64,000 nucleotides of DNA. Source: Dehalococcoidia bacterium (GTDB lineage Bacteria > Chloroflexota > Dehalococcoidia > UBA2979). Positions 23,454 through 54,179 of this stretch are shown here, one piece after another. Numbering within the stretch: the first letter of the stretch is position 1; every line of letters starts with the position of its first letter. The position numbers were made by a program, and so were the translations under genes. The stretch lies in NCBI GenBank assembly GCA_965219085.1, contig OZ244720.1, positions 2,528,001 to 2,592,000 of the forward strand. Reading direction: 5' to 3'. Under the pieces are notes generated by a model that did not search any database, was not told the DNA's origin, and saw only the letters and a list, made by a program, of their open reading frames with translations.

Positions 23454-23457
23454 GTGC

Positions 23458-24112: not shown

Positions 24113-24145
24113 CCCAGCCCTCCGCGGGTGGACGTGTCCTGTTCT

Positions 24146-27214: not shown

Positions 27215-27420
27215 GGATCGCAGTCTATCAGCGGCTGCGAGTACTCGGCGTCTTGCCGCCGCCAGACGCCTCTCCATGAGCAGCATCGGGCCGGCGGTGC
27301 GGGCGTTTCTCACGGAGTTCGGAGTCCCGTCGGATCGCTTTGGCGCGACTCCGAAAGATGCTCAGCAGCAGGAGCCGCCTGAGTCGCAAGGCAACCAGTG
27401 AGCCATCCTCGCGGGCTCGG

Positions 27421-31987: not shown

Positions 31988-32667
31988 CATCGAGGCTGGC
32001 ATCGCCAACTGCGAACTCTGCCGCGATCGATCCGCCGGCGAGCGCGTGTCGCCGCAGTCGAGTTGGATCGGACGTGACTACGCGCCTAGAGGCGTCGCGT
32101 TTTGTGCTCCAGAACCCCGTTGCGCCCCCGGACCGCGATGCATGGGCCAGGCGCGACGACGCCCTCACGCTCCTGCTACAGCAGTTCAGCGCGGAGCCAA
32201 CCGCGCCGCAGTACCATCAGCTCGTGGCGGAAGTGCACGCCCAGATGCTGGGCCGCGATGATCGCAGCACCGAGGCGTGGGAGACCTGGACCGATCTGGT
32301 CGGCAGGTGCGTCGAGGGTTGCCTCGAGCCAACGCATCTCGCGTGGATGAACGTGGCGAAATACCGCAGACCGCGGCAGCAGAACCTGCTTGGCGAAGAG
32401 CGGAATCACGGCGTCTACCATCTGCGCGAGGAGCTTCGAGTACTGCAGCCACGCCTCATCGTGACGGCTGGCCGGGAGGCCCAGCAGGCCGTGCGCCGCA
32501 TCGAGGGTGAGTGGGCTGAACCGCTCTACGTGCCACTACAGAATCCACAGCCGAGTCAGACGCTCGCAGTGTTGAGTCGGATCCAGCGCGAGCGGCTTTG
32601 CCGCCGGGAGCCGACGGGCAAGAAGGCACGCAAGCGCGCCACCCACGCAAACCGAATCGGGCGGTGA
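31938..32667 (+). pseudogene. Uracil-DNA-glycosylase-fold protein, copy 1 (+1 frameshift ~32102)
   Basis: Near-identical to 42832-43560; extra T in GCGTTTTGTG versus GCGTTCGTG. Confidence 0.75.
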
Positions 32668-32689
32668 TGGCTGGACCGAGGAACTGCCG

Positions 32690-33460
32690 ATGTCGACACT
32701 GATCGAGCACCTGCGATCCTTCAACCGGAAGGAGCGCTTCATCCTGCTCCGCGAGGCGCTCGGTAGCGACACCGTCGGCGACGCGTTCCGCCGGCGACTC
32801 GGGGACTCCATTGGCAAAGCGGTGCCCGACGATGCGTTCGTCGCGATGGACTACCACCTCGACTGGCTGCAGATGGCGCTCTATCTGGCGGCCACTCCCT
32901 CCCCGCCGGAGCGAATCCCCAACGACCAGCTCGTCTCCGGCAACCAGGAAGACGCCGACCTGCTCGTCGCGTTCAATGGCGACTCGACGACGCACGTCGT
33001 CCTGATTGAAGCCAAGGTGGAGGCGAACTGGACGAACAGGCAGCTCAACTCGAAGGCCGGGCGGCTCAGCCGGATCTTCGGGAAAGCCCGGCCCGGCGTT
33101 CACCTCGCAACGCCTCACTGCGTGCTGGCATCACCCGAACCGCCCCCTCCGGGCATCAGCACTGCCGAGTGGCCCGAGTGGATGAAACCGCGTGGCGAGC
33201 CGGTCTGGATGGAACTCGAACGACCTGCCGGGCTGAAGAAGCCGACGCGCTGCACGGCGCGCGGCAGGACCTCGAGGCGGGGCCGCTTCGTGCGCATCGA
33301 CTCGTTGAGCGGCGGAGACCAGCCGGAGGCGCCGGGCGTCGGTCCGCGCGAGATCCCGCACAACGGCCAGACGTACACAGTCGACGCCGCAGGCTTCGTC
33401 CTGCTGGCCTCGGGCCGGCGCGACAAGCGCTACAGGTACCCGCTCGGCAAGCGCCCCTGA
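32690..33460 (+). CDS. Putative PD-(D/E)XK nuclease, copy 1
   Basis: QEDADLLVAF..VVLIEAK..W..QL..K pattern. Confidence 0.65.
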   Translation: MSTLIEHLRSFNRKERFILLREALGSDTVGDAFRRRLGDSIGKAVPDDAFVAMDYHLDWLQMALYLAATPSPPERIPNDQLVSGNQEDADLLVAFNGDSTTHVVLIEAKVEANWTNRQLNSKAGRLSRIFGKARPGVHLATPHCVLASPEPPPPGISTAEWPEWMKPRGEPVWMELERPAGLKKPTRCTARGRTSRRGRFVRIDSLSGGDQPEAPGVGPREIPHNGQTYTVDAAGFVLLASGRRDKRYRYPLGKRP

Positions 33461-33950
33461 GGACCGCCGGCGCTGCGCCCGGGTGACCACGGTGGCCCGT
33501 CAACACCGGCTCGGCACCTCCGGCTATCCCCGCGCCGCAGTTGATCGACTCGCCTCAGCAGCGCCGTGATGAGTCCAGACTCGATCGCTTGCGCGAGGGA
33601 GCCTTCGGCAAAGCGGTCCCGGCGGATCACCACCGTCAGGAGCCGTGCGAGGTCGAGCACGGCCGCCTGTTTGAGCATCCCGCGGTCATCCCGAAGGCAC
33701 CGAGCCTCCGGCGTCTCCGCCCACGCGGACCAATCGAAGTCGGGGCCCACCCAGCCGTCGCGATAGGCCACCTCAACGAACCGGGAGGTGAGTTCCGTGG
33801 GAGAGAACCGGGCATCGTGAAGCTGCCGGGCTCCACCTCGTTCCCACCTTGCCAATTCCCGAAGTCGGCGTCGGGGGCCTCGAAGGCCGGAAGGAGGGCC
33901 GCCAAGCCATCAAGCCGCGGTTCGGCCAGCTCGCCGCGTTGATCGGTCAA
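33430..33950 (-). pseudogene. DUF6508-like protein, frameshifted
   Basis: FDW..W, LLTVVIRRDRFAEGSL..AIESG motif; frame change near 33810; TTG start after GGGAGG. Confidence 0.6.
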
Positions 33951-34175
33951 GGTACGAGTCCTCCCGTGCCGCGCGCCTCGTCGGACCTCGTGGCGAACGC
34001 TTGGCGCCGCGACCGCCGCCATCCGCTCCATGCGCCATCAGGTCCATGATCGTGTCGGCGTCGTCGATCACGCTGCGGTCGGGTCCGCGCAGCCGCAGAC
34101 TATAGCGCGCCTGGGGCAACGACCATCAGGCGCGCGACCCGCCTGGCGGGCGCACTCGCTGGCGACTCCGCTCCG

Positions 34176-34466
34176 CTATCTACCGGTCGCGTCCAGATCC
34201 GCCCCGGCAGGCAGATCCCGGTCGGGGCGCACCAGGATGCCCTGTAGCCCGAGCGCCGCGGCGATCGTGACCAGTGCGTACAGGTGCCCCGAGGCGGGCG
34301 CGACGCCCCGTCGCCACTCGCGGAGCCGGTAGGGCCGGACGCCGAGCAACCGCGCTAGCGATCGCACGCCGAGCCCGGACGCCACGCGGAACTCCTCGAT
34401 CCGCTCCCCGAAGTCGTCCGGGAGGTCGGAGACGACGGGCCGATGCACCAGCGTCCGGGTCGACAC
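34176..34466 (-). CDS. XRE-family HTH protein
   Basis: FGERIEEFRVASGLGVRSLARLLGV..LREWRRG. Confidence 0.75.
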   Translation of the reverse strand: MSTRTLVHRPVVSDLPDDFGERIEEFRVASGLGVRSLARLLGVRPYRLREWRRGVAPASGHLYALVTIAAALGLQGILVRPDRDLPAGADLDATGR

Positions 34467-34467
34467 G

Positions 34468-34758
34468 TCAGGAACCCCCGCGTCCGTCCTGCGAGCCGCT
34501 GTCGTCGTCCCGCAGGATCGCGGCGCCGCCCGGGATGCGGTCGGCGAGCAGGAACAGCGCGGCCATCGCGAAGCCGTTCGGCAGCGTGCCCTTGCGCCAG
34601 CGCTGCAGCTGGCGCGGATCGACGCCCAGGCAGGCCGCCAGCCCATCCCAGGGAAGGCCGAGCGCCTGCTTGAGGCGAGCGAGGCGCGCCGGGAGGTCGT
34701 TCACGACGGGCGTCGCGTCGACGAACAGGTGCGACGGGGGGTAGGAGCTGCGCCTCAT
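34468..34758 (-). CDS. XRE-family HTH protein
   Basis: RLARLKQALGLPWDGLAACLGVDPRQLQRWRKG. Confidence 0.8.
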   Translation of the reverse strand: MRRSSYPPSHLFVDATPVVNDLPARLARLKQALGLPWDGLAACLGVDPRQLQRWRKGTLPNGFAMAALFLLADRIPGGAAILRDDDSGSQDGRGGS

Positions 34759-34943
34759 ACCGCGCCATCCTCCTCACCGGCCGGCTTCGTGGCGGTAGCG
34801 CTGCAGCGCGTCGACGGCGCCGCGGCCGGATCGCCGTCGGGATGGTCCATGTAGAGGTGAGGATGGGCGAGCGCGTGGCGCGCGATGATGCGGGCCAGCC
34901 GGCGCAGGCCGTCGAGGCGCATCCGCTCCCGCTCGTCGTCCAT
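34755..34943 (-). CDS. Small hypothetical protein divergent from recombinase
   Basis: MDDERERMRLDGLRRLARIIAR; ATGA overlap with next gene; paralogue at ~44842-45026. Confidence 0.55.
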   Translation of the reverse strand: MDDERERMRLDGLRRLARIIARHALAHPHLYMDHPDGDPAAAPSTRCSATATKPAGEEDGAV

Positions 34944-35369: not shown

Positions 35370-37000
35370 ATGCCAGAACGAACCGAACCCACCCCCGCCG
35401 CCCTCTAGGCGCGCGTCTCCAGCGACCGCCAGGACGTCGACCTCTCCGTCTCCGCGCAGCTCCGCGCGCTGCGCGACTACGCCGAGCGCAACGGCTACGC
35501 CGTCGTCCGCGAGTATGTCGACGAGGCGGAGAGCGGCCGCATCGCCGACCGCCCGCAGTTCACGAAGATGCTCGACGCCGCACGCGAGCCCGACGCGCCG
35601 TTCCGTGAGATTCTCGTGTGGAAGTTCTCGCGCTTCACCCGCAAGCGCGAGCACGCCGTCGCCTTCAAGTCGATGCTGCGCCGCCGCGGGATCAGGGTGA
35701 CCTCGATCACCGAGCACGCCGACGACTCCCCGACCGGCAAGCTGATGGAGGCGATCATCGAGAGCGTCGACGACTTCTACTCCGAGAATCTTGCTCAGGA
35801 AGTGATGCGCGGTCTCCGCGAGTCCGCCTCGCGCGGCTTCTGGGTCGCACTGCGCCCGCCATACGGTTATCGCAAGGTCAAGGTCCACGACGGCCCGAGG
35901 GAGCGCCCGAAGCTCGAGCTGAACCCGCCCGCCGACGGCCTGGTGCGGCGCACCTTCGAGATGGCGCTCGCGGGCCGCAGCGTGCTCGACATCAGCAAGA
36001 CGTTCAACGCCGAGGGCATTCCCAGTCCCGGGGGCAAGCGCTGGAGCAAGACGACGATCCACCAGATGCTCTCCAATGAGACGTACGCCGGCACGCTGCA
36101 GTGGGGCGTCACCGCAAAGGACGGGCTGCCGCCGGTCCGCGTCGAGGACGCCTTCCCCGCCGTCGTCTCGAAGGACGAGTTCCGGCAAGTCGCCGCCCTC
36201 CTGCGCGCGAAGGCGCCCGCGCAGGTCCACCCCCGGCGTTCCGGCAGCCCCTATCTGCTGAGCGGGCTGGTGCGGTGCCGGAAGTGCCGCCGCGCGCTCA
36301 CGGGGGCGGAGGCGAAGAGCGGGAAGTACAGCTACTACGTCTGCCAGTCCCTCTTGAAGCGGGGCAGCGGCACCTGCGAGACGCCACGCCTCAACGCGCA
36401 GCGCTTCGAGCGGCTGATCGTCGAGCAGATCCGGGAGCACATCCTCACCGAGTCCAACATCCGCGACCTCGTGCGCCTCGTCGACGAGGAGATGGACGGC
36501 GTGGCCCGAGAGGAGCGGGCAAGCTGGAGAGCGTCGAGGCCGAGCTGGCCGAGGTGCGCCGCAAGATGGACCGGCTGTGGCACGCGGTCGAGACCCCCGA
36601 CCTCGAGGTCAACGACATCCTGCCGCGGCTCCGGCAGCACCAGGAGAGTCAGGAGCGCCTCGAGGCTGCGGCCGAGGAGACGCGGAGGAGCTTGGCGGAG
36701 CGCCGCGCGGTGCTGGACAGTGCAGAGGTGATCGCAGCGTTCGCGCGCGAGATGAGCGAGTTCCTGAGGACCAGCGAGCTGACCGAATCGAAGGCGTTCA
36801 TCCGCTCCTTCGTGCAGGAGATCGCGGTGAGGCCCGGGACGGCGACGATCCGCTACACGATCCCGACGCCGCCGGACAGCCCGATCGGCGGGCGGGACGC
36901 AGCCGAGGTCGAGTTGCCAGAGGCAGTTCGCAGTACAGTCAGCTTTGGCTGGCCAAAGAAGACTGTACTGCGAACTTTTGAACTGAGCGTGGCGCTGTAA
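35370..37000 (+). pseudogene. Large serine recombinase (integrase), inactivated
   Basis: AAL*ARVSS (TAG at 35406 in place of Y of YARVS), SRFTR, PYGY, CRKC..YYVC Zn ribbon, coiled coil; frameshift ~36518. Confidence 0.92.
36925..36976. other. attP-like palindrome inside the 3' end of the recombinase gene
   Basis: AGTTCGCAGTACAGTC-AG-CTTTGGC-[TG]-GCCAAAG-AA-GACTGTACTGCGAACT: perfect 16-bp and 7-bp inverted repeats around a central dinucleotide. Confidence 0.85.
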
Positions 37001-38184: not shown

Positions 38185-38830
38185 TAGGTCCCTGCGTATC
38201 GGCGCGAAGGTTGCTGGCCGGGTTTCCCGTGCCCGCCGTTCTGGCCCTCGAGCGGGAGGCGACTCACGCTCCCGATGACGCGATCTGGCGGCTAACGCTG
38301 TCATCCCTCTCGGCGCAGTCCTCGACCGAGCAGTCCCGCACGGCGTGCTGCCGGAGGAGCGGGCCGCCCGCACGCCTGACGCCGCCCGCCGTCCTGTCCG
38401 TCGATGCATCGAGGTGGGACGTGCCCAAGTGCCTGCTGCCGACGCTGCTCAGGCCCGCTGAGAGGGCGCGCTCGACCTGCTCGCCGATTGGCCGTGGCTC
38501 AGCCCCGAGCACCTGCAGGCGCTGCTCAGTGTTTGGCGTGCGCGGACCGCGCAGATCGCCTCGGCCCTCCGGGACCACGGACTCGCGCCGCGCGTGTCGG
38601 CGGCCAACGGGTGCCTCGTCCTCACCGAGCGCGGTCGGCCTACCGACAACCATGGCGTTCGGCCCAATATCCTTGTCGTCTTCAGCGACGAACTCGCTGT
38701 GCACCACTTCCTGCGCGTGGCGCTGGAAGAAATCGGACGCACGGGCGTTGATCTGCCGCTGCGGGTCTCGCACGCGAACCTCGTTGAGGCCGAGGGGGCT
38801 GCTAGGGGCGGCCTGGCTGACGCCTGGGAA
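38185..38830 (+). pseudogene. Degenerate replication-relaxation gene remnant
   Basis: Patchy similarity to 30830-31890 (LLAGFPVPAVL, DVPKCLLP, VVFSDELAVHHFLRVA) with deletions and frameshifts. Confidence 0.8.
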
Positions 38831-38880: not shown

Positions 38881-39729
38881 TTACGCATCCCGCAGCTCCG
38901 GCAGCGCGGCGCGGGTACCGACAACGAGGCCGGCATCGCGCACCTGCGCGATGAGCTGTTCCCAGAGCCCGCGCAGCGTCTCGGGATCGAGGCCGCACGT
39001 CCGCTTGTGATTCTGCGCCAGCGTCCTGGTGAAGTACCGCTCGTCGAGTTCGATGCTCGGCCGCTCGAAGCCAGCATCGCGCCCGGCGCGCATGGCTGGG
39101 AAGAAACTGAACATCCCGTTGACCGGGTCGTCCCGCGTCGCTCCCCGGTAGAGCATGAGCGTCGACTCCTCGCCGTTGTCCACGAGCGGGCCGCCGGTCA
39201 CATCGAGGAAGGTGCCGGGTACCCAGTCCGCCAGCACGATGCGCGCCTCCGGCGCGGCATAGTCGACGTAGTCGGCGACGACCAGCACGGTGTCGAGCAC
39301 CCAGCCGCCTCTCTTGCTCCCGAACGCGATCACAGAGCCGCGCCCGAGGCGCCGCAGGCCGGGTCTCGTCGGCTGTAGGCAGTTCGAGTAGAGGAAGCGC
39401 TCGCCAAAGATGAACGGGTCGGTGTTGTGCAGGCGCTCATAGCCGCTCCGGGGGATCACGTAGTGCGGCATCCAGAGGTGCCTCGGGAGCCCGGGGGCAC
39501 CGGACGGGTCGAGATCGCGGATCAGGTCTGATTGGGCCTCCCACTCGCCCCACGCCCACAGGTCGCCCTCGTGGACGCGGCCGTCATCCGCGATCCAGTT
39601 GCCCTGGACCTGCATGAACTTCCGCGCGTGCCGGCTGTCGTACGTGTTCCATGGTTTCTCGCCGAGGCGATCCGGCAAGTGTTCACCGCCTGGATGCGGG
39701 AACTGCACAAAGCAGGCGCTATCGCTCAC
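38881..39729 (-). CDS. Hypothetical protein, possibly nucleotide-modification-associated (Nmad-like)
   Basis: FVQFPHPGGEH, WGEWE, NTDPFIFG..FLYSNC..L.RGSVIAFGS; GTG start overlaps upstream stop by 11 nt. Confidence 0.6.
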   Translation of the reverse strand: MSDSACFVQFPHPGGEHLPDRLGEKPWNTYDSRHARKFMQVQGNWIADDGRVHEGDLWAWGEWEAQSDLIRDLDPSGAPGLPRHLWMPHYVIPRSGYERLHNTDPFIFGERFLYSNCLQPTRPGLRRLGRGSVIAFGSKRGGWVLDTVLVVADYVDYAAPEARIVLADWVPGTFLDVTGGPLVDNGEESTLMLYRGATRDDPVNGMFSFFPAMRAGRDAGFERPSIELDERYFTRTLAQNHKRTCGLDPETLRGLWEQLIAQVRDAGLVVGTRAALPELRDA

Positions 39730-40486
39730 GCTGCCACGCCTCCACCACGCTCGCGCCCAGTTCGCGCTTCTGCCCGGCGGTGATCGTAAGCGGCGTCCTC
39801 CCCGCAGGACAGAAGACGAACAGCGCCCGGGCGCTGCCGACCTCGTACCAGCGCGACTCCACCTCGTAAGGGCGCCTACGGATCTCACCCCCACCTGTTC
39901 GCTCGAAGGTGTGAACGGTCTGCCACTCGCTGATGGCGTCGAATCGGATGCGATCGAGGTGGCGCCTCGCCACCGAGAGGACCACGACATGCGGCCGCAA
40001 CGTCTCCACCAGCGCGTGCCACAGGGGACCGCCGCCGCCTTCGAGCGTCGCACGCTCGGCCTCTGTGAGGCTGCTCCAGGTCGGGTTGGTGGCTACGGGC
40101 GAGCAGATGTCGGTGTGCAGGGCGGTGGAGGCCTCGCCGTCGTAGTAGCTTGCAGACGCGCCATTGAGCAGCGGCTCGAAGTGCCTGAACCAGTTGCGGT
40201 AGGGATCGGTTCGGAAGTACGCCGAGAGTGCATCAATGTAGCGACCGTCGTCCTTCGGCGTGACGCCCGCAGCGAGCGGGAACCGCCGGAAAGGGTCCTC
40301 GGCAGGAAACTCTTCCAGCGAGGGATTCAGCCCGACGGTCAGCATCCGCAGTGGCGAGGAGCGGTATGCGGCGAGGTCGCCGAAGAAGAGGATGGGGCTG
40401 GCCGGGCCCACGCGAGCTGGCAGGGCCGCAGCACGCTCGAACGCGCGCCATGCCTCATCTACCAGTTCACCGACGCTCACCTGCAT
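39719..40486 (-). CDS. Divergent UDG-superfamily protein
   Basis: PILFFGD, LTVGLNPS (GxNP motif), HTDI..P.AT, LRPHVVV. Confidence 0.6.
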   Translation of the reverse strand: MQVSVGELVDEAWRAFERAAALPARVGPASPILFFGDLAAYRSSPLRMLTVGLNPSLEEFPAEDPFRRFPLAAGVTPKDDGRYIDALSAYFRTDPYRNWFRHFEPLLNGASASYYDGEASTALHTDICSPVATNPTWSSLTEAERATLEGGGGPLWHALVETLRPHVVVLSVARRHLDRIRFDAISEWQTVHTFERTGGGEIRRRPYEVESRWYEVGSARALFVFCPAGRTPLTITAGQKRELGASVVEAWQRER

Positions 40487-40520
40487 CCTCACCCCTACCG
40501 CCGGCTAATCTCAGCGTCGG

Positions 40521-42233
40521 CTAGACGAAGTAGGACTCGTCCATGTCGGGATGCGGCTGAAGCGGAGTTCCGAGCAGGCGGATACCACCCGCTTCGAACC
40601 GGCGCAGCATCTCGTTCTCGTAGCACTCGTTGACGACGCTGCACTGAGCGTCGTTCAGATAGAAGGCGAAGCTCCTGACCCGATCGTGCGTACGTGCGAA
40701 TTCCTCACCGTCGACGTACTCAGCCTCGCAGCACTCCTGGAACGCACGGACCGCGGCCTCGACCTCATCCCGGTGCACCTGTGGCCGCAGTCGCGGTAGG
40801 AGGTCGACTGTGCCGTCGTCTGAAATGACGACGACGACTGAGCCTTCGGCCATGGTGCTCTGATACCGCACAGCCGAGTTGAAGCGAGAGCCCCGAGCTG
40901 GATCGCCGCGCCCGGTTGTTTCGCCGTCGAGAATCACACCAAAGGCGTGGCAGCGACCGTCTGACCCGAGTAGAATAGCCCCGTCTACGCGACCGAAGCG
41001 GACGATGTCGGCCGTCTCCAGAAACTCGGGCTCGATCGGCACAGCTTCCGCGCCGAGACGAGCAGTCTCGGCCTCGGGTTCGCCTGACACCACGAGCGTG
41101 GTGCCGTGCCCACTACCCTGTACTCCCTGAATGATCTCCCAGATACGGCCGATGTCAGCATGCCCGAGGATCCTTCGAGCGGTATCCACGAACTCGTCGG
41201 CATCGAGCAACGGCCGCGGGAGGGTTGGCTGGCCGTAGGAAACCCGCACCAGCGGGGACCCATCGACGCTCAATTCCCACACGGCGTGATCAGTCACCGA
41301 GATCTCGACTACGTCTGGAGCGGAAGGGCAGGCTCCGAGGCCGTATACACCTTCATGGTCTGCGAGCACCGCGTTCGATCCGTCGCTCAGTTCCAGCAGC
41401 TTTCGGATGCTTCTCGCCTGTCGGAGAGGGACGGGTCGTTGTAGCTGCACGCGGAGCCGGTCGGCGGTCTTCTCCCGGCGAGCGATCACGAGACGCCCGG
41501 CGGCAGCGGTGCGTTCGTAACCGAGAGAAGCGAACTCGTTCACCCAGGAGAACAGACCGGTCGGCCAAGTCGTCGCTCGGTATGCCGCTCCCTCCGCCAG
41601 TCGCGCAGCAGCGACCCTGACGATGTCCTCCGTCATGCCGAGGGGAGAGAGGTCCGCGCCGGGATCTGGTAGGTACAAGGCTCGGTCCGCACGGTGCAGA
41701 CACTCCGCGATCAGCTCGTGCTGTAACGATCGCCCAACATGGACGCGGTCAACTACTGAGTCATCAAGGGCGGGAAGGGAATCGAGTGCTGCGGTCGGGA
41801 TTCCGAGACACGTGTGCACGTGATAGCCGTCGATTGGTGCTCCGCTGCTCGCGAAGAAAGTCATTCCACCGAACGCGCGCGATGCTTCGATGGCTTCGAC
41901 GAGAGCGTCTCCACGCGATCGTCGGAATAGCTGGCGACGCCGCAAGTCATGAAGGCGGGGATCGGTGTGGAACAAGCGCGAATCCGGGTTCTCCTCGAAC
42001 AGTTCCTCCGTCCGGGCCGCGACCGCTGTCAGATTGTCGACGGTGAGGGGGCCGCCCTCGGGCTCGACACAGACCTGGTGCGCCAGACCGTCGTCAAGTG
42101 CGAAGCCCACCAGCACGACGCGCGGCTTCACCGGAAGCCCGATCGTTGCGAGGGCGCGTTCGATACCTTGTGCGACGATGATTCTGAAGTGCCGCTGGAA
42201 GCCCCACATGAACTGATCGATCGTATCGTTCAC
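40521..42233 (-). CDS. Diadenylate cyclase (DisA_N) with N-terminal sensor domains (DACNG/DACNH type)
   Basis: MWGFQRHFR N-terminus; HGTTLVV, VDGAILL, GVILDG, RGSRFNSA, ISDDG DAC motifs. Confidence 0.85.
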   Translation of the reverse strand: MNDTIDQFMWGFQRHFRIIVAQGIERALATIGLPVKPRVVLVGFALDDGLAHQVCVEPEGGPLTVDNLTAVAARTEELFEENPDSRLFHTDPRLHDLRRRQLFRRSRGDALVEAIEASRAFGGMTFFASSGAPIDGYHVHTCLGIPTAALDSLPALDDSVVDRVHVGRSLQHELIAECLHRADRALYLPDPGADLSPLGMTEDIVRVAAARLAEGAAYRATTWPTGLFSWVNEFASLGYERTAAAGRLVIARREKTADRLRVQLQRPVPLRQARSIRKLLELSDGSNAVLADHEGVYGLGACPSAPDVVEISVTDHAVWELSVDGSPLVRVSYGQPTLPRPLLDADEFVDTARRILGHADIGRIWEIIQGVQGSGHGTTLVVSGEPEAETARLGAEAVPIEPEFLETADIVRFGRVDGAILLGSDGRCHAFGVILDGETTGRGDPARGSRFNSAVRYQSTMAEGSVVVVISDDGTVDLLPRLRPQVHRDEVEAAVRAFQECCEAEYVDGEEFARTHDRVRSFAFYLNDAQCSVVNECYENEMLRRFEAGGIRLLGTPLQPHPDMDESYFV

Positions 42234-42831
42234 GCTACACCCTGCGCGCAGACTGGCGATCCAGCATCGGGGGGCCACTCTAGCACGGTGGTGGCGATGA
42301 ACCGCACGGACGCCGCAGCCCGCGCCACGCCAGCGGAGCCGCCAGCCGCTGTGGAACATGGGACACGCCGGCGCCGTGCACGCTTCATCGCGGCGCTCAC
42401 CACGCAGTCGCGCGCGCGGATGGGATCTCATCCAGCTCGACCCGCCCCACCGGGCGTGGCGTTACTTCCGCCGCGACAGACGCCTGCGCTCCGTGCTGCC
42501 CGACGCCTTCGCCGCCTTGCGCAGCGGGACGACGCTGTGGCCGTGCTTCGTCGAGCGAGCGCCGCGGGGTGCGGCCCTCAACGATGGCGGCGAAGCTCGC
42601 ACCCTACCAGCGCCATTACGCCACGCCCCGGCCTACCGACAAGCACGGCGCGCGGCCCGCCGTGCTTGTCGTCTTCGGCGACGAACTCGCCTCGCACCAC
42701 ATCCTGCGCGGGGGCGGGAGGAGATGGAGCGCACCGGCGTTGACATGCCGCTCCGGGTCTCCCACGCGAGCCTCGTTGACGCGGGAGTGGCCGCTGGGAG
42801 CCCGGCTCGCCCGACCTCCCTATGATGGTCC

Positions 42832-43560
42832 GTGACGGCAATCGATCGGAGCACGCCATTGGACTGGACAACCATCGTTGACGTCGAGGCGGGCATTGCC
42901 AACTGCGGACTCTGCCGCGATCGATCCGCCGGCAAGCGCGTGTCGCCGCAGCCGAGTTGGATCGGACGTGACTACGCGCCCGGAGGCGTCGCGTTCGTGC
43001 TCCAGAACGCCGTTGCGCCCCCGGACGGCGATGCATGGGCCAGGCGCGACGAATCCCTCACGCTCCTGCTGCAGCAGTTCAGGGCGGCGCCAACCGCGCC
43101 GCACTACCATCAGTTCGTGGCCGAAGTGCACGCCCAAATGCTGGGCCGCGACGATCGCAGTACCGAGAGGTGGGAGACCTGGACCGATCTGGTCGGCAGG
43201 TGCGTCGAGGGTTGCCTCGAGCCAACGCATCTCGCGTGGATGAACGTGGCGAAATACCGCAGACCGCGCCGGCAGAACCTGCTCGGCGAAGAACGGAATC
43301 ACGGCGTTCACCATCTGCGCGAAGAGCTTCGAGTACTGCAGCCACGCCTCATCGTGACGGCTGGCCGGGAGGCGCAGATGGCGGTGCGCCGCATCGAGGG
43401 TGAGTGGGCTGAACCGCTCCACGTGCCACTACAGAATCCACAGCCGAGTCAGACGCTCGCAGTATCGGGTCGGATCCAGCGCGAGCGGCTGTGCCGCCGC
43501 GAGCCGAGGGGCAAGAAGGCACGCATGCGCGCCTCTCGCTCAAACCGAATCGGGCGGTGA
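42832..43560 (+). CDS. Uracil-DNA-glycosylase-fold protein, copy 2 (intact)
   Basis: CGLC, WIGRDY, FVLQN, MNVAKY, LREELRVLQPRLIVTAGREA family-4-like motifs; QNP in place of HP. Confidence 0.75.
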   Translation: MTAIDRSTPLDWTTIVDVEAGIANCGLCRDRSAGKRVSPQPSWIGRDYAPGGVAFVLQNAVAPPDGDAWARRDESLTLLLQQFRAAPTAPHYHQFVAEVHAQMLGRDDRSTERWETWTDLVGRCVEGCLEPTHLAWMNVAKYRRPRRQNLLGEERNHGVHHLREELRVLQPRLIVTAGREAQMAVRRIEGEWAEPLHVPLQNPQPSQTLAVSGRIQRERLCRREPRGKKARMRASRSNRIGR

Positions 43561-43582
43561 TGGATGGACCGAGGAGCGGCCG

Positions 43583-44353
43583 ATGTCGGGACTGATCGAG
43601 CACCTGCGATCCTTCAACAGGAAGGAGCGCTTCATCCTGCTCCGCGAGGTGCTCGGTAGCGACACCCTCGGCGACGTCTTCCGCCGGCGACTCGCGGACT
43701 GCACCGGCGTCGCGGTCCCTGCAGATGCGTTCGTCGCGATGGACTACCACCTCGACTGGCTGCAGATGGCGCTCTACCTAGCAGCCACTCCCTCGCCGCC
43801 GGAGCGAATCTCCAACGACCAACTCGTCTCCGGGAACCAGGAAGACGCCGACCTGCTCGTCGCGTTCGACGTCGACTCGACGACGCACGTCGTCTTGATT
43901 GAAGCCAAGGTGGAGACGAACTGGACGAACAGGCAGCTCAACTCGAAGGCCGGGCGGCTGAGCCGGATCTTCGGCGAAGGCCGGCCCGGCGTTCACCTGG
44001 CAACGCCACACTACGTGCTCGCATCACCCGAACCACCCCCTCCGGGCATCAGCGCTGCCGAGTGGCCCGAGTGGATGAAGCCGCGTGGCGAGCCGGTCTG
44101 GATGGAACTCGAACGGCCGGCCGGGCTGAAGAAGCCGACGCGCTGCACGGCGCGCGGCAGGACCTCGCACCGGGGCCGCTTCGTGCGCATCGACTCGTTG
44201 AGCGGCGGAGACCAGCCGGAGGCGCCGGGCTCCGGTCCGTACGAGACCCTGCACAAGGGCCAGACGTACACGGTCGACGCCGAAGGCTTCGTGCTGCTGG
44301 CCTCAGGGCGGCGCGACAAGCGCTACAAGTACCCGCTCGGCGAGCACCCCTGA
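43583..44353 (+). CDS. Putative PD-(D/E)XK nuclease, copy 2
   Basis: Paralogue of 32690-33460; QEDADLL..LIEAK. Confidence 0.65.
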   Translation: MSGLIEHLRSFNRKERFILLREVLGSDTLGDVFRRRLADCTGVAVPADAFVAMDYHLDWLQMALYLAATPSPPERISNDQLVSGNQEDADLLVAFDVDSTTHVVLIEAKVETNWTNRQLNSKAGRLSRIFGEGRPGVHLATPHYVLASPEPPPPGISAAEWPEWMKPRGEPVWMELERPAGLKKPTRCTARGRTSHRGRFVRIDSLSGGDQPEAPGSGPYETLHKGQTYTVDAEGFVLLASGRRDKRYKYPLGEHP

Positions 44354-44399
44354 GGACTGCCGGCACTGTGCTGGGGCGATGACGGCGGCCCCGTCGGCT

Positions 44400-45026
44400 C
44401 TGGCTCGGCACTCCCGGCTACCCCTCCCGCCGGAGTTGATCGACTCGCCGCAGCATCGCCGTCATGAGTTCGGACTCGATCGCTTGCGCGAGGGCGCTTT
44501 CGGCGAAGCGGTCCCCGCGGATCACCACCGTGAGGAGCCGCGCGAGGTCGAGCACGGCCGCCTGTTCGAGCGCCCCGCCGGTCATCCCGAAGGCGCCGTG
44601 CCTCAGGCGTCTCCGCCCACGCGAACCAATCCAAGTCGGGGCGCACCCAGCCGTCGTCGCAGCCGTTCGGCATCGTGCCATTGCGCCAGCGCTGCAGCTG
44701 CCGGACACCCACGCCCAGGCATCGCGCCAGCCCGTCCCATGGGACGCTACTCCGCCTTCAGGCGAGCGAGGCGCGCCGGGAGGTCCTTCACGACGTGCGT
44801 CGCGTCGACCAACAGGTGCGACGGCGGGTGGGCGCTGCGCCTCACGCCGCGCCGTCGTTCCGGGCTGGCTTCTTGGCGGCAGCGCCGCGGCCTGTCGCCG
44901 ACACTGCGGACAAGTCGTCGCCGGGAGCGTCCGCGTAGAGGTGGGGGTGAGTGAGGACGTGGCGCGCAATGATGCGGGCCCGCGCGCGCAGGCCGTCGAG
45001 GCGCGTCCGCTCGTGCTCGTCGCTCA
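44400..45026 (-). pseudogene. Fused remnants of DUF6508, HTH and small ORF
   Basis: HTH sequence (QLQRWRNGTMPNG) joins directly to DUF6508 sequence (DGWVRPDLDW) near 44660. Confidence 0.65.
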
Positions 45027-45539: not shown

Positions 45540-48500
45540 CTACTGATCGTCGTCAGTTGGGCTCCCGTCATTGGACTTGGCGAACTGGTACACGAGGCTC
45601 TTCGCTTCGGCCACACCCGATAGTGTGATGGAGCCGCGTTCCGTCGGTCGGAGTTGGTTCAGGGGATCGACGACAATACGGATGGTCGGCTGTGCATCCG
45701 CACCCTCCTCCAGGTTCGAGACAACGACCAAGAAGAAGTCGGCCGTCGTGAGCGCTCGCCGCACCTCGGAGTTCGTTAGCGTCACTTCGTTCGGTTCGGT
45801 TCCGGAGCTGACCTTCAGCTCGTAGTACTTCCCCAACTCGTCCACCGCGTCGGCACCAACACCGCGCTGGGCGCGGATGTCGGCGATCTGTTCCTCGTCG
45901 CTGCCGAGCAGCATTCTCAGAAGCTCTAGCCCTACATCCTCCTTGTCGATGTCGGAGTACGCCCGCAAAGGGGTCCTATTGCGTGGTCCGCGGGAACCGC
46001 GCTTCGGGTCGTTAAGGCTGCCGCCGCGAGCCGTCCTACCGCGACCTCCGCGCGTTCCATCCGGCGATCCCCGATCAGCGCGCCCCCTCGCGTCGACCAG
46101 CGTGAGGGACTGAGGGTCTACGAGGGTCCTGAGAGCCGTAGCCGAATAACTGGCCTCCCGGCGGTCGCGGCCATCGCCTCCGAGGCGGGGTGTCTGAGTC
46201 TTGCCAGCAGTTCCACCCGCCCTACCTCGAGGCGAGCGCTGCTTGCGGGCGGTCCTTTCCCGAAGCTCGTCTAGACGACGATCGGCATCGAGTTCTGCCT
46301 CTTCGCGCTCAGCGCGTTCGCGGGCAAGTTCGAGAGCTCGCGCTTTGATCCCGGCCTCGGCTTGGTCGCACGCAGCCCGCCACGCTTGCGCAACTAGCCT
46401 CGCTCCAGTCTTGAAGATCGCCGCGAGCGCTCTCCCGCCTCCATCAACGCGAGCAAGTACCTCGGGGTCAGTTACGAAGACCGTGCCAACGTCCGTGTCG
46501 ACCGTCGCGTCTACTCCGCATTCATACGTCTGACCGGAATCCACGCTTACGGCGAGCGTGAGCGACGGATGCACCTTCACGGCGTACGTGGCCAAGCGGC
46601 TCCAGGGCACGGTGAGGCTCTCAGCGAGTTGCGCATCGTTGCGCTGCAGGTCGTCGCGCAGTAACTCAACGGCCTGTCGAAAAAGCCCGGTCGATTCGGG
46701 GGCTTCCGTTGCGAGATCGGGCTCGACTACTACAGTCTCCTTTGTTTGGATCTCCGTAACGCGCAGCGGCGCGAGTATGGAGCGGAACTGATCAAGCCCT
46801 CCCCCGGGTTGCCAGATCGGTACACGATCGCCCAGGCCGTCGGCTAGAACCCGGTCGTTGGTCGCGAAGACAGGCCGGTCGCGCCTCCATCCCTGGCTGG
46901 TCCACAGAGCCAATCCTGCGAGTTTTCGGCGCTCGACCGTGACTCCCCGTGCGTGGTGTTCGGAGAGTGCGCGCAGTGTCTCGAGGAGGATGACCTCCTC
47001 GGTAGCGTCCGGAGCGTGTTTGCGCCGATTAGCCACTTGGCGGAGGACGTCGAGGCAGTCGCTCGGTAACGGTCGTCTGAGCCGAAGCGCGCGCCACAGC
47101 GGCTGACATCCCGCGATCGCAGGGGCGAATGCGCGAAGGTCCCGGAAGATTGGTGGTCCGAGGAGCACACTCCGAGGAGGAAGCCAACCCACATTCGTGA
47201 GCAAGAGACTGTCACGAGCGAACTCGTCTCGCAATTGATCTGCAGTCAGGTCGGAGTCGGCGACGTCACCATCGAGACCTCGTGCCAGAGCGCGGTAGAC
47301 ACGAGCCGTCTCGTGGCGCTGGTCTTCGGATGAGCCCTCATCATCGTACGAGGCATACCGGAGTTCTCGAAGCCGCGCCACCATCTCGGAACGACTGGGA
47401 TCACTCGAAACGCCAAGTGCGGTCAAGAGTGCAGGGCGCTTCGCTCGAGCGAGATCCGCATGCAAGTAGTCCGGCGAGTCGACACCGTATATCGCCTCAG
47501 TGCCGGGCGTTCGGACGCGCAATTCCGATGGCTTGCGCGGAGACCCGCCCTCATCGTCAAGCCAAGCAACATCGCCGGCTTGCAGGAGCCAGAAGGCTGG
47601 GATCTTCCCCGTCGTCACCCAACCATAGTTCGCAGCCGCAGCATCGACCTGTGCGAAGTCGCTCAACCGACGGTTCCACGCTCGCCCGAGTGCCGCGAGC
47701 ATGGCGCTGGCCCTCTCTCTCCGACGCTTGCCTTGCTGCTCACTTGCAATGTCGCTGATCACCGCCTGGAGGTCAGGACTGTCGTGGTCTTGGAGCGTGT
47801 ACTCGGCGCCTCGTTCCCGCAGAGCTTGGAAGCGAGTAGACGGCGCACCGGACACCCGAAGGTGTACACCGCGCCGCACATCCCTCTGGTAGCTCTTGGT
47901 CCGGTGCGGGTGCGATCGGAGTCGCGGTGCCGTTTCGGCACCCAGCAATCGGAGGAAGCCAAGGGCGCCGAGCCCCTCGCGCCCTGCGTCCGAGCGGAGA
48001 GTCCTGGAGTAGCTGTCGCTGAGCCACATGATCCTCCAGGATTCACCTGCTGCAACAGCGAAACTGTCACGTTCTCGATCGATCGTCCGGGGCAGGTAAG
48101 CGTCGGCAGGCCGAGCGGAAGCGACCCGTCGCCCGCCGTTACCGTTGTAGTCGTATCTGTACGACTCGAGCCGAACCGCGCGACCGACATCAGGCCCCAG
48201 CTTCTCAGCATCGCGGCGATCGAGACGCTCGAAAGCACCCCGAAGCGCCTGCACCTGCTCGTCCGTGAGTTGGCCGCCAAGGGAGCGCCCAGCCCGCCCT
48301 GCCTCGGCGAGACGGCGTACCACTTCCCCATCGTCGGAACCGTCGAGCAGAGCGCCGCACTCCTGCAGCCAATCCAGTACCTCCGGAGCGCCGTTCTCTT
48401 GGGCCAAGTGGGCAGGGTGAATGAGCGTGGTTACGCCGAGTCGCTCCGCGAGCGGTGTAGTCGATACGGCGACGGCTGACGTGGATGCCCGCGCCGGAGG

Positions 48501-50090
48501 AACGATCCGGCGTCCGTCATGAGCGATCACGCAAGGGAGTTCGAGCAAGCGTGCTGCGAGACCCTCTCGCAGCGCGGCCGCGACGACCCCGATTGTCGAT
48601 TCGATTGGGCGCGCCTTATCACTCACGACTTCGAGCGCCTGTTCCACACTGACAGTCGTGGGCAGATCAGCTCGGTGGCTCCGCCAGTCCTCGAGTACCA
48701 ACCGCCACCTTCCAGCGCGATCCCGGACGTCGCTTGGGAGCGTAGCGGTAAGGCCGGCCAATCTTGCGGTCTCCGCTTCATGCAGGAGTTCTTCTAGCGG
48801 CTGTGCCTCCACCGCAAGCCTCGACAAGCGAACATGGCCTTGTCCACGCACCGGGAACGCCAACCGGGATGCCACGACTCTTCTGGCGTTCTCCAGGATG
48901 GTGGTCTCAAGCGTCTGGACCACACCCGAAGCAACCTCGCCCTCGGAAGGAAGTGGGAGTGGCATTGCGTGCCAGGCAGCCTGGGGATCACGACCGAATA
49001 GATCGAGCACCGCCTCTGTCCAAACCTCCGCGACGAGGCGCGCGAGCGCTTCGTTCCACTTCGAGTCAGCGAAGTCTGTCCGGCTGGTGAGCGGATCGAA
49101 CTGGGCGTTCGCGAAGAGCGGTGCACGTATCGGGGTGACAGGCAGCCCTGCGTAGACTTGGCCCGCGTCAGTAGGCCCAAGCGGTAACGCCACTGCAACA
49201 GGAGTCGTAGGATCTGTTGCCTTCTCTGCACGGTGGAGGCCGGGAGGGCTGGGTACGTCTGCGCTGTAGACGGCCCAAGTACGCCCGTCTGTTGTCTCCG
49301 CGTGCCCTCGCGCTATTCGGGACGGGCCCGATGCTAATCCCACGTCACCGTCTTGTTGGCGCGAGAGTGCGAGTTGGCCAATCTGACCACCTTCAAGGTC
49401 CAGCAATGTGACGCGACCTACATGGCGAAGGAACAGCAGCGCTGAGTCGTCCCAGCGATCAAGCCACTCCTTGAGTTCCGACGCTTGCAGCGTCCCGGGC
49501 TGTAGGGGGATCCGGAGTGTCGTCCAGCCTGGCTGACCGAACTGCGGCGGCAGTTCGCGCATCTCGACGGGTGCCACTGTTGGTTCGCCGATCTGGATGT
49601 GATAGGGGGCGCAGTGCACCTCAAGCGTCGTGGACAACGATCGCAAGGTTGCGAGCCCAATGCCGAACCGCCCTATGGTAGCCGCCTCACCGGCCTTAGT
49701 GCTCAGCCATGGGGTCGCCAAACTGAGCACGTGCCGGAGCCGTACCGGACTGCCGTTATGGCTCGCCAGCAGATCGGTAGGCCTCAGTTGGAAGCGTACC
49801 TCCGAAGCCTCTGCATCGTCGGCGTTCTGAATGATCTCAGCGAGGCCTTGAAGCCGATTCGCTGAGAGGAGGCTCCCGCTACTGCGGGCTGCGCCCAGTG
49901 CCTTCGCAATCGAACCGGGAAGTTCCTCGAACAACTTACCAAGGCGCTGGACCGCCGCTCGGGCCTCCGGAACGGTGCTGGGTTCGAAAGAGGGGGCATC
50001 AGAGGCGAGCTTCGGGTCGAAGACTTGCTCGGCAGCCTCAACGGCGAGCTTGATCCGGTCGATGTCGCTGCCCGGTGTTTCTAGCATCAC
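45540..50090 (-). CDS. Sacsin-like GHKL ATPase with C-terminal DUF3883/NO VEIN-type nuclease domain
   Basis: LAEIIQNADDA, HNG, GRFGIG, WTTLRIP; C-terminal GADA..YYELK..VTLTNSE. Confidence 0.82.
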   Translation of the reverse strand: MMLETPGSDIDRIKLAVEAAEQVFDPKLASDAPSFEPSTVPEARAAVQRLGKLFEELPGSIAKALGAARSSGSLLSANRLQGLAEIIQNADDAEASEVRFQLRPTDLLASHNGSPVRLRHVLSLATPWLSTKAGEAATIGRFGIGLATLRSLSTTLEVHCAPYHIQIGEPTVAPVEMRELPPQFGQPGWTTLRIPLQPGTLQASELKEWLDRWDDSALLFLRHVGRVTLLDLEGGQIGQLALSRQQDGDVGLASGPSRIARGHAETTDGRTWAVYSADVPSPPGLHRAEKATDPTTPVAVALPLGPTDAGQVYAGLPVTPIRAPLFANAQFDPLTSRTDFADSKWNEALARLVAEVWTEAVLDLFGRDPQAAWHAMPLPLPSEGEVASGVVQTLETTILENARRVVASRLAFPVRGQGHVRLSRLAVEAQPLEELLHEAETARLAGLTATLPSDVRDRAGRWRLVLEDWRSHRADLPTTVSVEQALEVVSDKARPIESTIGVVAAALREGLAARLLELPCVIAHDGRRIVPPARASTSAVAVSTTPLAERLGVTTLIHPAHLAQENGAPEVLDWLQECGALLDGSDDGEVVRRLAEAGRAGRSLGGQLTDEQVQALRGAFERLDRRDAEKLGPDVGRAVRLESYRYDYNGNGGRRVASARPADAYLPRTIDRERDSFAVAAGESWRIMWLSDSYSRTLRSDAGREGLGALGFLRLLGAETAPRLRSHPHRTKSYQRDVRRGVHLRVSGAPSTRFQALRERGAEYTLQDHDSPDLQAVISDIASEQQGKRRRERASAMLAALGRAWNRRLSDFAQVDAAAANYGWVTTGKIPAFWLLQAGDVAWLDDEGGSPRKPSELRVRTPGTEAIYGVDSPDYLHADLARAKRPALLTALGVSSDPSRSEMVARLRELRYASYDDEGSSEDQRHETARVYRALARGLDGDVADSDLTADQLRDEFARDSLLLTNVGWLPPRSVLLGPPIFRDLRAFAPAIAGCQPLWRALRLRRPLPSDCLDVLRQVANRRKHAPDATEEVILLETLRALSEHHARGVTVERRKLAGLALWTSQGWRRDRPVFATNDRVLADGLGDRVPIWQPGGGLDQFRSILAPLRVTEIQTKETVVVEPDLATEAPESTGLFRQAVELLRDDLQRNDAQLAESLTVPWSRLATYAVKVHPSLTLAVSVDSGQTYECGVDATVDTDVGTVFVTDPEVLARVDGGGRALAAIFKTGARLVAQAWRAACDQAEAGIKARALELARERAEREEAELDADRRLDELRERTARKQRSPRGRAGGTAGKTQTPRLGGDGRDRREASYSATALRTLVDPQSLTLVDARGRADRGSPDGTRGGRGRTARGGSLNDPKRGSRGPRNRTPLRAYSDIDKEDVGLELLRMLLGSDEEQIADIRAQRGVGADAVDELGKYYELKVSSGTEPNEVTLTNSEVRRALTTADFFLVVVSNLEEGADAQPTIRIVVDPLNQLRPTERGSITLSGVAEAKSLVYQFAKSNDGSPTDDDQ

Positions 50091-53848: not shown

Positions 53849-54179
53849 CCCGTCCCGCTCCAAGACCGGCAAGACCGCCTGCTGATGTCCCCGATCGGTC
53901 CGATGCCACTCCCGCGCGCACCATCGATGCAGACATGGGTCGCGGGGCGCCTTCTCGTTGCTCCCGATCTTCGCAGATTGTAGGGCAGGGCGGCGGGGAA
54001 GTCCGAGTATTCATCCCATATCGACCCGTGTCGAGGAGCGTCTTGCGGAGGGCGACCGCTGAGGTTGGCCCGGGGGAGGCGTCCGGCTCCGGTCTTGGAA
54101 CGCACGAAGGGCAGCACATCTGAGAACCGGCGAGGGCCGCGGTTTCACGCGACGGCCCCCACGGTCCCCGGCTGTCAGC

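Follow-up and report, generated by a model that had tools for sequence, protein, structure and literature searches.

Two probably independent anti-phage modules, a gene pair of likely Brig3-BapA kind and a DS-2C/CdaG-type diadenylate cyclase, side by side in a Dehalococcoidia genome

Three adjacent genes of a Dehalococcoidia bacterium, which have the appearance of a new signalling triad, are in our reading (probability about 0.72) two independent anti-phage modules, a pair of the Brig3-BapA kind and a diadenylate cyclase (DAC) of the DS-2C/CdaG type, brought together in a decayed, tandemly repeated mobilisable element. The genes lie in a stretch of 64,000 nucleotides of contig OZ244720.1, which was analysed as a whole and is referred to here as the window. 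Both modules were described in 2026, and the resolution of the apparent triad into two known modules saves bench effort. Folds, motif conservation, gene coupling and the missing co-occurrence were computed in this analysis; the activities of Brig3, BapA and DS-2C are taken from papers. The initial annotation knew of no experimental description of the three genes, and this holds for the triad itself, of which our literature search found no description, and not for its parts, which are described, in the portions of these sources available to us, as DS-2 (PMC13092281), DS-2C (bioRxiv 10.64898/2026.08.10.743927) and Brig3-BapA (bioRxiv 10.64898/2026.02.25.707755). The features of the locus are the following.

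38202..38797, plus strand: pseudogene fragment of a relaxase (Replic_Relax), downstream of the cassette; direct repeats D3, D6, D10, D11, D12 and D15 against 30845-31864, 79-86% identity
38881..39729, minus strand: P3, putative BapA-like beta-rich protein of the PUA-like (ASCH/EVE/YTH) fold class, 282 aa, GTG start
39719..40486, minus strand: predicted Brig3-like DNA glycosylase of the UDG superfamily, 255 aa from the ATG, 257 aa from a GTG at 40492
40521..42233, minus strand: DS-2C/CdaG-type diadenylate cyclase, 570 aa, intact, DACNG-DACNH-DAC plus a C-terminal helical part
42409..42784, plus strand: second relaxase pseudogene fragment, upstream of the cassette; repeats D4, D8 and D10 against 31481-31859

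As first annotated, the three minus-strand genes are intact and co-oriented among pseudogenes, with relaxase fragments on both flanks. A gap of 34 bp, in which no terminator was predicted, separates the cyclase stop from the ATG of the UDG-like gene at 40486, preceded by GGGGTGAGG (the GTG at 40492 is the alternative start), and the stop of the UDG-like gene and the start of P3 overlap by 11 nt. The junction between the cyclase and the UDG-like gene is spanned, with 0 differences, by contigs of 4 runs from one study; these runs may be the source data, and therefore they are not independent support for the junction. Both flanking relaxase fragments share 78-91% identity with the intact relaxase (30557-31987), and the one at 42409-42784 passes into an incomplete mobile-element copy that reaches about 45022, with repeats D1, D2, D5, D7, D9, D13 and D14 extending the match to 34938. 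Furthermore, the serine recombinase at 35568-36731 has lost its N-terminus. The locus looks like a decayed, tandemly repeated mobilisable element holding defence genes, and its earlier description as a defence or mobile island is borne out. PADLOC, whose library dates from 2023, matched none of the three genes.

The cyclase matches in Pfam, in this order, DACNG (4.7e-46, residues 9-212), DACNH (9.1e-17, 226-323) and DAC (9.4e-8, 369-478), an architecture of the DS-2C/CdaG type that bears out its assignment to a conflict-system family. Against the NCBIfam model NF053872 (DS2_3_antiphage) it reaches 2e-161 and 538.2 bits, short of the 630 bits required of an equivalog, which makes it no more than a relative. 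The DGA motif (D417 G418 A419) is invariant in 34 homologues, as are R450 and S453, and RGSRFNSA stands in the position of RHR; the retention of the one motif and the replacement of the other had been seen correctly at the outset. The same is true of the N-terminal part of about 360 aa, consisting of DACNG and DACNH, and of the lack of HhH and transmembrane regions: HhH has no Pfam match in the protein, and the hydropathy peak over 19 residues, 1.57, falls in a charged, proline-containing stretch, so that no transmembrane helix is indicated.

According to the available portion of the DefensePredictor paper, DS-2, composed of a phospholipase, a cGAS and a DAC protein, is a validated CBASS variant in which the cyclase is required, and the DAC catalytic residues are needed for phage defence (PMC13092281); DS-2C makes c-di-AMP in vitro (bioRxiv 10.64898/2026.08.10.743927). 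The window cyclase shares with DS-2, DS-2C and CdaG the DACNG-DACNH-DAC order in about 570 aa, the DGA motif, an RHR motif reduced to its first Arg and a site in a defence island, but it differs from DS-2 and DS-2C in having no cGAS or phospholipase alongside or elsewhere in the genome, and in its score (538 against 630 bits). The minimal DAC systems Panoptoo and PanDA, as far as the accessible parts of the sources go, likewise rely on a DAC domain against phages and signal through c-di-AMP; unlike the window protein, whose N-terminal domains are large and beside which no effector of that type was seen, they combine cyclases of about 150 aa with an S2TM-beta effector.

The scan of 53 ORFs of the window revealed neither SMODS nor patatin nor any other component of CBASS, in line with the earlier statement that no standard CBASS-type effector is adjacent, and SMODS has no match in the whole genome (92.7% complete), in which a housekeeping DAC gene is present. 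In metagenomes, recognisable CBASS parts stand beside the cyclase in 7 of 80 loci, and because none was recognised in the other 73 a mode of action free of CBASS is likely. By analogy with DS-2C, the window cyclase would share its activity: it would make c-di-AMP, regulated by DACNG and DACNH, and, with no CBASS partner in this genome, would either work via the cell's own c-di-AMP network or be an orphan. In the latter case it could be the remnant of a lost system of the DS-2/CBASS type that does nothing useful here, leaving the pair to work alone. We judge this improbable: the missing SMODS, the surrounding mosaic of broken mobile-element copies and the CBASS parts next to relatives (the 7 metagenome loci, and 15 of the 30 DAC homologues in the accessible part of PMC13092281) fit such a remnant, but the frame is intact, all family-invariant residues are kept and most relatives (73/80) likewise have no recognisable CBASS neighbour. 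An independent cyclase module therefore remains our preferred reading, and the occurrence of a DS-2C-type cyclase in a CBASS-free genome raises the question of a stand-alone role of such enzymes. As a separate observation, TmtA is encoded in the window 3.3 kb upstream of the cyclase, and in 2 of the 80 metagenome loci, which are related, the gene directly upstream of the cyclase is TmtA-like; the two proteins resemble each other only distantly, and the link is too thin to claim.

The structural matches of the UDG-like and P3 models come from a VIA-align wide search. The AlphaFold model of the UDG-like protein (pLDDT 80.6) finds its best folds, all at Z 10.1, in the family 4 UDG 1l9g (174 residues aligned), UdgX 6ail (168) and the Tth UDG 2d3y (184), and unrelated proteins appear in the same search at Z of about 5.9, below these matches. 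At the sequence level the Pfam family UDG is matched weakly by 7 of 45 relatives (best E 0.005), and a search of the PDB with the protein and its profile gave 0 matches. The residues F37, N56-P57-S58, E61, Y98, W101-F102, H126 and D128 are invariant or at least 90% conserved in the family, and by motif register, not by alignment, they correspond to F31, N50-P51-S52, E55, Y97, W100-F101, H125 and D127 of Brig3. The spacings from F to N (19), from Y to H (28) and from W to D (27) are the same in both proteins, and that from N to Y is 42 in the window protein versus 47 in Brig3. This full pattern occurs in 40 of the 45 family members and in none of the 3 other UDG-like genes of the genome.

In the accessible part of the Brig3 preprint, N50, E55, W100, D127 and R197 are essential by mutagenesis, and F31, P51, S52, Y97, F101 and H125 form the pocket (bioRxiv 10.64898/2026.02.25.707755). 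The likely counterpart of R197, a DNA contact, is R205, invariant at the beta4-beta5 hairpin. At the position of the wedge residue N225, in the loop after the last strand, the window loop 228-238 has R232 and the family consensus is Q, with no Asn that can be placed with certainty. Brig1 and Brig2 are also enzymes of the UDG superfamily that excise modified phage bases (per the accessible text of bioRxiv 10.64898/2026.02.25.707755); unlike the window glycosylase, which has a partner gene, they are single-gene systems, and Brig1 differs further by a wider pocket for glucosyl-5hmC (Q81, W122, Q147), the window protein having the E, W, D set of the Brig3 type. On this model, the enzyme would flip a 5-hydroxymethyl-pyrimidine, most likely 5hmC, out of the incoming DNA into a pocket of aromatic residues (F37, Y98, W101, F102, H126), where E61 would read the hydroxymethyl group and N56 and D128 would cut the glycosidic bond; the abasic sites so produced would stop phage replication.

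The model of P3 is beta-rich (pLDDT 91.7, pTM 0.92), and its best structural match is ZmASCH (5guq_A, Z 5.5, 130 residues aligned), the structure to which the fold of BapA is likened in the accessible portion of bioRxiv 10.64898/2026.02.25.707755. Of the 31 structural matches listed, 28 are ASCH, EVE, YTH, McrB-N or related readers of modified bases, and these matches are modest, with a top Z of 5.5 and none of at least 8 among those listed, and can reflect a common arrangement. P3 has no Pfam family, and in the PDB sequence search with the protein and its profile only RPB5 appeared (E 0.16), a match judged to be chance. D104, in the motif HNTDPF, is invariant in 50 sequences, 49 of which carry the motif, and is equated from position only with D101 of BapA, a residue reported as essential (bioRxiv 10.64898/2026.02.25.707755, accessible part). 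By analogy with BapA, P3 may be an enzyme and not only a reader: using D104 it would strip the sugar from glycosylated hmC, which could allow the glycosylase to act on hypermodified phages. P3 shares its fold class with the PUA-superfamily readers of type IV restriction (EVE-HNH VcaM4I, Z 5.2; McrB N-domains, Z 4.4 and 4.3; PD-T4-3, Z 2.5). Those readers come fused to nucleases, and a comparable fusion, to a TIR effector, is seen in one P3 relative. At 282 aa, however, P3 is roughly double the length of the single reader domains (120-170 aligned), and in most cases it stands by itself or is linked to a glycosylase.

The third gene had initially been called Nmad-like, a label that found no support in Pfam or in profile comparison. 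With E values up to 1 allowed, PF18754 (Nmad3) matched none of 50 relatives, and it had no match in 11 divergent ones or in 5 genomes with P3 relatives; hhalign against 4 Nmad3 proteins gave a probability of 0.07%. The only lead towards Nmad3 came from a language model, with a score of 0.86 against a cluster that has Nmad3 in 26% of its members. A search of a phage collection returned no match for P3, and one of a plasmid collection a single weak match, from Synechocystis, with 35.5% identity across 56% of the P3 sequence.

The UDG-like gene stands directly upstream of P3 relatives in 55 of the 82 loci examined, and P3 relatives stand alone in about 24. In 38 of 52 same-strand pairs the inferred overlap between the two genes is 11 nt, and in 47 of 52 it is 7-12 nt; the pair is read here as a translationally coupled unit, complete in itself. 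Among 19 long forms tested, 6 are fusions in the order UDG-like then P3 and 1 has the reverse order, and in two Peribacillus genomes both proteins are encoded within one ORF (775 and 807 aa). In the accessible part of bioRxiv 10.64898/2026.02.25.707755, Brig3 is a 5hmC DNA glycosylase and BapA a glucosyl-5hmC deglucosylase, encoded by overlapping genes with that of the glycosylase first, and an ADP-ribosylglycohydrolase gene is present in the Brig3 cosmid; such a gene is near the pair in 3 of 80 loci. The UDG fold and the Brig3 residues of the second gene, together with the 5GUQ-like readers matched by the third, indicate that the pair is most likely of the Brig3-BapA kind, and by analogy it would share the activities of Brig3 and BapA. 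Homology is judged from the spacing of motifs, the fold and the form of the operon, and not from an aligned comparison with Brig3 and BapA (cosmid GenBank PX942695). The likeness extends from the glycosylase gene followed by an overlapping gene for an ASCH-like beta-barrel protein to the pocket and catalytic residues at mostly equal spacing, the invariant Asp near BapA D101, 5GUQ as top match, the ADP-ribosylglycohydrolase gene sometimes nearby and the defence-island setting. The differences lie in the wedge residue (R or Q in place of N225, or uncertain), in the three diverged copies present in this one genome and in the fusion of relatives in other organisms, while the accessible part of the preprint saw no stable Brig3/BapA complex (bioRxiv 10.64898/2026.02.25.707755). 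The earlier idea that the UDG-fold gene and its partner handle modified phage bases is thus strengthened by the fold, the residue set and the reader-type fold of P3, the activity itself being predicted by analogy.

The pair could instead serve the host in housekeeping DNA repair or nucleotide salvage. Both in this genome and in four Dehalococcoidia loci, one copy is flanked by MurJ and IleRS, a site suggestive of a housekeeping gene; metabolic genes are found among many pair neighbours, PADLOC does not match the pair, and Brig enzymes retain residual uracil activity (bioRxiv 10.64898/2026.02.25.707755, discussion, in its accessible text). However, conservation covers the Glu that would read the hydroxymethyl group and the entire Brig3 pocket, other copies adjoin IS21, PIN-TPR, relaxase and recombinase genes, one relative carries a TIR domain, and a genome of 3.3 Mb holds three diverged paralogous pairs, all keeping Brig3/BapA-type residues; we therefore regard a housekeeping role as unlikely and retain defence as the function proposed for the pair.

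The initial annotation had coupled the detection or excision of modified bases to cyclic-dinucleotide signalling, and failure of the cyclase to co-occur with the other two genes elsewhere had been named beforehand as refuting it. This is what the loci show, and the coupling is not supported: the cyclase is in none of the 82 other P3 or pair loci examined, and the pair is in none of the 80 metagenome cyclase loci, 47 of which have at least 1.7 kb downstream. Within the class, DACNG occurs in 3 of 301 genomes, and both of the others have no pair within about 9 kb. This genome has one cyclase, and the other two copies of the pair are without it. As a weak indicator, comparison by eye of the top 120 relatives of P3 with the top 120 of the cyclase gave one contig size in common (26655). 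A complex prediction with the glycosylase, P3 and residues 1-360 of the cyclase (score 0.00, mark 0.32) is evidence neither way.

These counts bear most directly on the proposal that the three genes are one functional operon, in which the cyclase sensors would read the work of the glycosylase (abasic sites, the freed base or a phage glycosylase inhibitor) and answer with c-di-AMP. Co-orientation and a gap without a predicted terminator fit co-transcription here, the three genes are intact amid pseudogenes, contigs of 4 runs span the junction, and in the published cosmid, according to the accessible part of bioRxiv 10.64898/2026.02.25.707755, brig3 is likewise directly downstream of a cyclic-nucleotide system, a type II-E CBASS. 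Against these points stand the missing co-occurrence in all three sets of loci and in the other pair copies of the same genome, the lack of a recognised c-di-AMP-binding effector beside the cyclase among the window ORFs, and the accessible literature, in which Brig3-BapA works in the absence of DS-2C and DS-2C in the absence of Brig3-BapA, so that a single operon is very unlikely. A specific form of it, with a DS-2C-type cyclase captured upstream of a brig3-bapA-like pair and co-transcribed, c-di-AMP reporting excision or its blockage by phage through host receptors, we would hardly expect at all; if true, the hybrid would add a guard layer to a glycosylase defence, and chance would not account for the cyclic-nucleotide system that the published brig3 directly follows.

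With the two modules taken as independent, what is added to the context of the Brig3 preprint, as far as its accessible text goes, concerns mainly the BapA-like family. The family of P3 comprises 1716 representatives at 50% identity, spread over many phyla of uncultured bacteria; it can be present in several copies in one genome, is often fused to the glycosylase, also occurs alone and includes one TIR fusion, and this size, spread, copy number and variety of forms suggest a general role as reader and eraser of DNA hypermodification.

Three minus-strand ORFs fill positions 38881–42233, as ORF analysis of the window showed:

40521–42233, minus strand, cyclase, 570 aa
39719–40486, minus strand, UDG-like glycosylase gene, 255 aa from ATG
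38881–39729, minus strand, third gene, 282 aa, GTG start

The ATG of the UDG-like gene is preceded by GGGGTGAGG, a ribosome-binding-like site, and an alternative GTG lies two codons upstream of it. The initial annotation had described three co-oriented genes, and the coordinates confirm both a 34-bp gap between the cyclase and the UDG-like gene, in which a consensus scan found no terminator-like site, and an 11-nt overlap between the latter and the third gene. Logan contigs from four runs of one study, which may themselves be the source of the window, span the cyclase/glycosylase junction from 40166 (or 40307) to 43199 with no differences; the junction is therefore no assembly artefact in this dataset. 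Co-transcription of the cyclase with the downstream pair is plausible.

The three genes had also been proposed to form a single candidate defence system, a reading that neighbourhood conservation does not support. The cyclase profile found no cyclase in any of 82 pair loci (80 genome loci found via the third gene and the two other copies in the genome itself), and a tblastn search of the 80 genome loci was likewise negative. Conversely, profiles of both pair proteins detected no pair in 80 metagenome cyclase loci; sequence of 1.7 kb or more was available downstream of the cyclase in 47 of these and upstream of it in 40. Of 301 genomes of the class, three encode DACNG, a domain of the cyclase: the present one and two in which the pair is absent within about 9 kb of the cyclase. 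The present genome holds three pair copies versus one cyclase. Our literature search found no published description of the triad as such. There is no evidence for the cyclase and the pair as a triad, and a true coupling of the two is very improbable; any co-transcription would have arisen locally, by chance, as the island was put together.

Both modules probably belong to kinds described in 2026. The cyclase matches the Pfam families DACNG (4.7e-46), DACNH (9.1e-17) and DAC (9.4e-8), and its closest NCBIfam model is NF053872 “DS2_3_antiphage” (538 bits, under the 630-bit cut-off). The retained DGA, the altered RHR and the lack of TM helix or HhH region reported at first sight were upheld by alignment of 34 relatives and by domain scan: DGA is invariant, R-F-N stands in place of RHR and keeps the first Arg in every sequence, and neither a TM helix nor HhH was indicated. 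According to the available text of the sources, the validated DS-2 system consists of three genes (phospholipase, cGAS and DAC) and no longer defends when catalytic residues of the DAC are mutated, and CBASS adjoins 15 of 30 DAC homologues (PMC13092281); DS-2C proteins, with the same domain order as our cyclase, yield c-di-AMP in vitro (bioRxiv 10.64898/2026.08.10.743927), and CdaG is another name of this family (bioRxiv 10.64898/2026.08.10.743972). In a scan covering one representative of each blastp cluster, recognisable CBASS parts (SMODS, patatin, E1/E2-JAB, TIR-STING) lay beside the cyclase relative in 7 of 80 metagenome loci (L119, L154, L163, L139, L167, L168, L124). SMODS has no match in the window or the whole genome, which does encode a further, housekeeping DAC (144 bits). 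Most likely, the cyclase is a separate DS-2C-type module without its usual CBASS partner, of interest in a CBASS-free genome; that it is a functionless orphan seems unlikely.

In the closest metagenome relatives (63% identity; L093–L095, L101) the cyclase is followed by five conserved genes (82, 373, 325, 817 and 111 aa), none of them in a Pfam family, which may be a partner set. At locus L091 (8439–9935), a 498-aa DACNG-DACNH protein without a Pfam DAC match neighbours BrxC/D-like, TerB, DEAD-helicase and RES genes.

Neither pair protein matched Pfam, NCBIfam or PADLOC. The model of the UDG-like protein (pLDDT 80.6) matches family-4 UDG, UdgX and T. thermophilus UDG at Z 10.1, and SMUG and MUG at Z 6.7–6.9, which bears out the UDG fold first assigned to the middle gene. 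For the third protein (pLDDT 91.7, pTM 0.92), 28 of the 31 chains matched at Z>=2 are ASCH, EVE, YTH and McrB-N modified-base readers or structural-genomics proteins listed among them, with ZmASCH 5GUQ at the top (Z 5.5); these Z values are modest, and the weight is carried by the consistency of the list.

The anti-phage system Brig3-BapA offers the nearest comparison. In the available text of its preprint (bioRxiv 10.64898/2026.02.25.707755), Brig3 is a UDG-superfamily enzyme excising 5hmC; the product of the overlapping bapA gene is a two-barrel ASCH-like protein, likened by the authors to 5GUQ, that strips glucose from glucosyl-5hmC and requires D101, and a third ORF encodes an ADP-ribosyl glycohydrolase. 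The residues named there for Brig3 (F31, N50, P51, S52, E55, Y97, W100, F101, H125, D127, R197) have counterparts, matched by motif register, in F37, N56, P57, S58, E61, Y98, W101, F102, H126, D128 and R205 of the window protein, all invariant or at least 90% conserved among 45 relatives. The distances between motifs are the same in three of four cases, strand count and hairpin and loop positions agree with our model, and the motif pattern, found in 40 of the 45 relatives, is missing from three other UDG-like genes in the genome. In the third protein Asp104 is invariant, and 3 of 80 loci have an ADP-ribosylglycohydrolase gene in the vicinity of the pair. Because the comparison is by residues, fold and gene context and not by alignment to the actual Brig3 and BapA sequences, we put the probability that the pair is of the Brig3-BapA kind at about three in four. 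Most likely, the pair would attack phage DNA bearing hydroxymethylated or sugar-decorated pyrimidines.

Among candidates scored, the two pair proteins have 798 and 682 relatives at E up to 1e-3, and the third-gene family comprises 1716 representatives at 50% identity. Immediately upstream of the third gene, 55 of the 82 loci have the UDG-like gene, with the 11-nt overlap in 38 of 52 pairs; the third gene stands alone in about 24 loci with enough upstream DNA. Fusions of both proteins, in either order, are known from other organisms. Neighbours are diverse (metabolic genes, MurJ/IleRS, ABC transporters, recombinases, a relaxase, PIN-TPR), and no third partner gene recurs among the pair loci. 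The MurJ-IleRS position would suit a housekeeping role, to which we give little probability beside an anti-phage one. In the three pair copies of this genome the third gene shows 100, 74 and 60% identity, and all three pairs retain the key residues. The breadth of the BapA-like family, its multi-copy state, the fusions and a TIR fusion are of interest: the third-gene relative P0439 (441 aa) carries an N-terminal TIR_2 domain (2.1e-25), which suggests that BapA-like domains have a further role as sensors for NADase-type effectors.

Two Peribacillus genomes carry a single glycosylase-partner ORF of 775 or 807 aa (L066:2842–5169, L071:7170–9593), with an extra C-terminal 184–214 aa of no known family and with SIR2 and ADP-ribosylglycohydrolase genes nearby. 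The second pair copy of the genome has a weak UDG-superfamily gene (Pfam 5e-4) directly downstream (L085:9773–10654) and adjoins an IS21 IstB gene and a PIN-TPR-GreABC gene.

The window (G+C 0.60–0.75) is part of a single 3.3-Mb contig. Profile scans of its ORFs reveal a mosaic of defence and mobile genes around the locus, with transposases, a UvrD-like helicase gene, two serine recombinases (one truncated) and the following:

20586–27313, minus strand, N6/N4 methylase (955 aa), HepT-like RNase (118 aa) and Res-type helicase-nuclease (ResIII+endonuclease, 1055 aa) in a row
30557–31987, Replic_Relax relaxase, accompanied by a TrwB-like coupling protein
38202–38797, partial element copy, relaxase fragment
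42409–45022, partial element copy, relaxase fragment, UDG, 317-aa ORF, DUF6508 and further matching sequence
45540–50090, minus strand, Tiamat TmtA (PADLOC, 1507 bits), 3.3 kb upstream of the cyclase
50909–61331, minus strand, co-oriented run of large genes (987, 258, 321, 659, 458, 691 aa) with only SNF2 and NOV_C matches

A mobilisable element at about 28.8–34.9 kb (28800–34940), with a TrwB-like gene, the Replic_Relax relaxase, a family-4-like UDG, a 256- or 317-aa ORF and DUF6508, is present as one full and two partial tandem copies with 78–93% identity. The three genes sit exactly between the relaxase fragments of the partial copies, and their description as intact genes amid pseudogenes is therefore correct.

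The methylase row resembles a type III-like restriction system with a toxin gene inserted, and the large-gene run could represent a further defence system. A TmtA-like SACS+NOV_C gene immediately precedes a cyclase relative, on its upstream side, in two related metagenome loci (L159:2745–6608, L161); its likeness to the TmtA of the window is only distant. Finally, a perfect 61-bp tandem duplication (repeat family D16) lies at the start of the relaxase gene (30507–30628).
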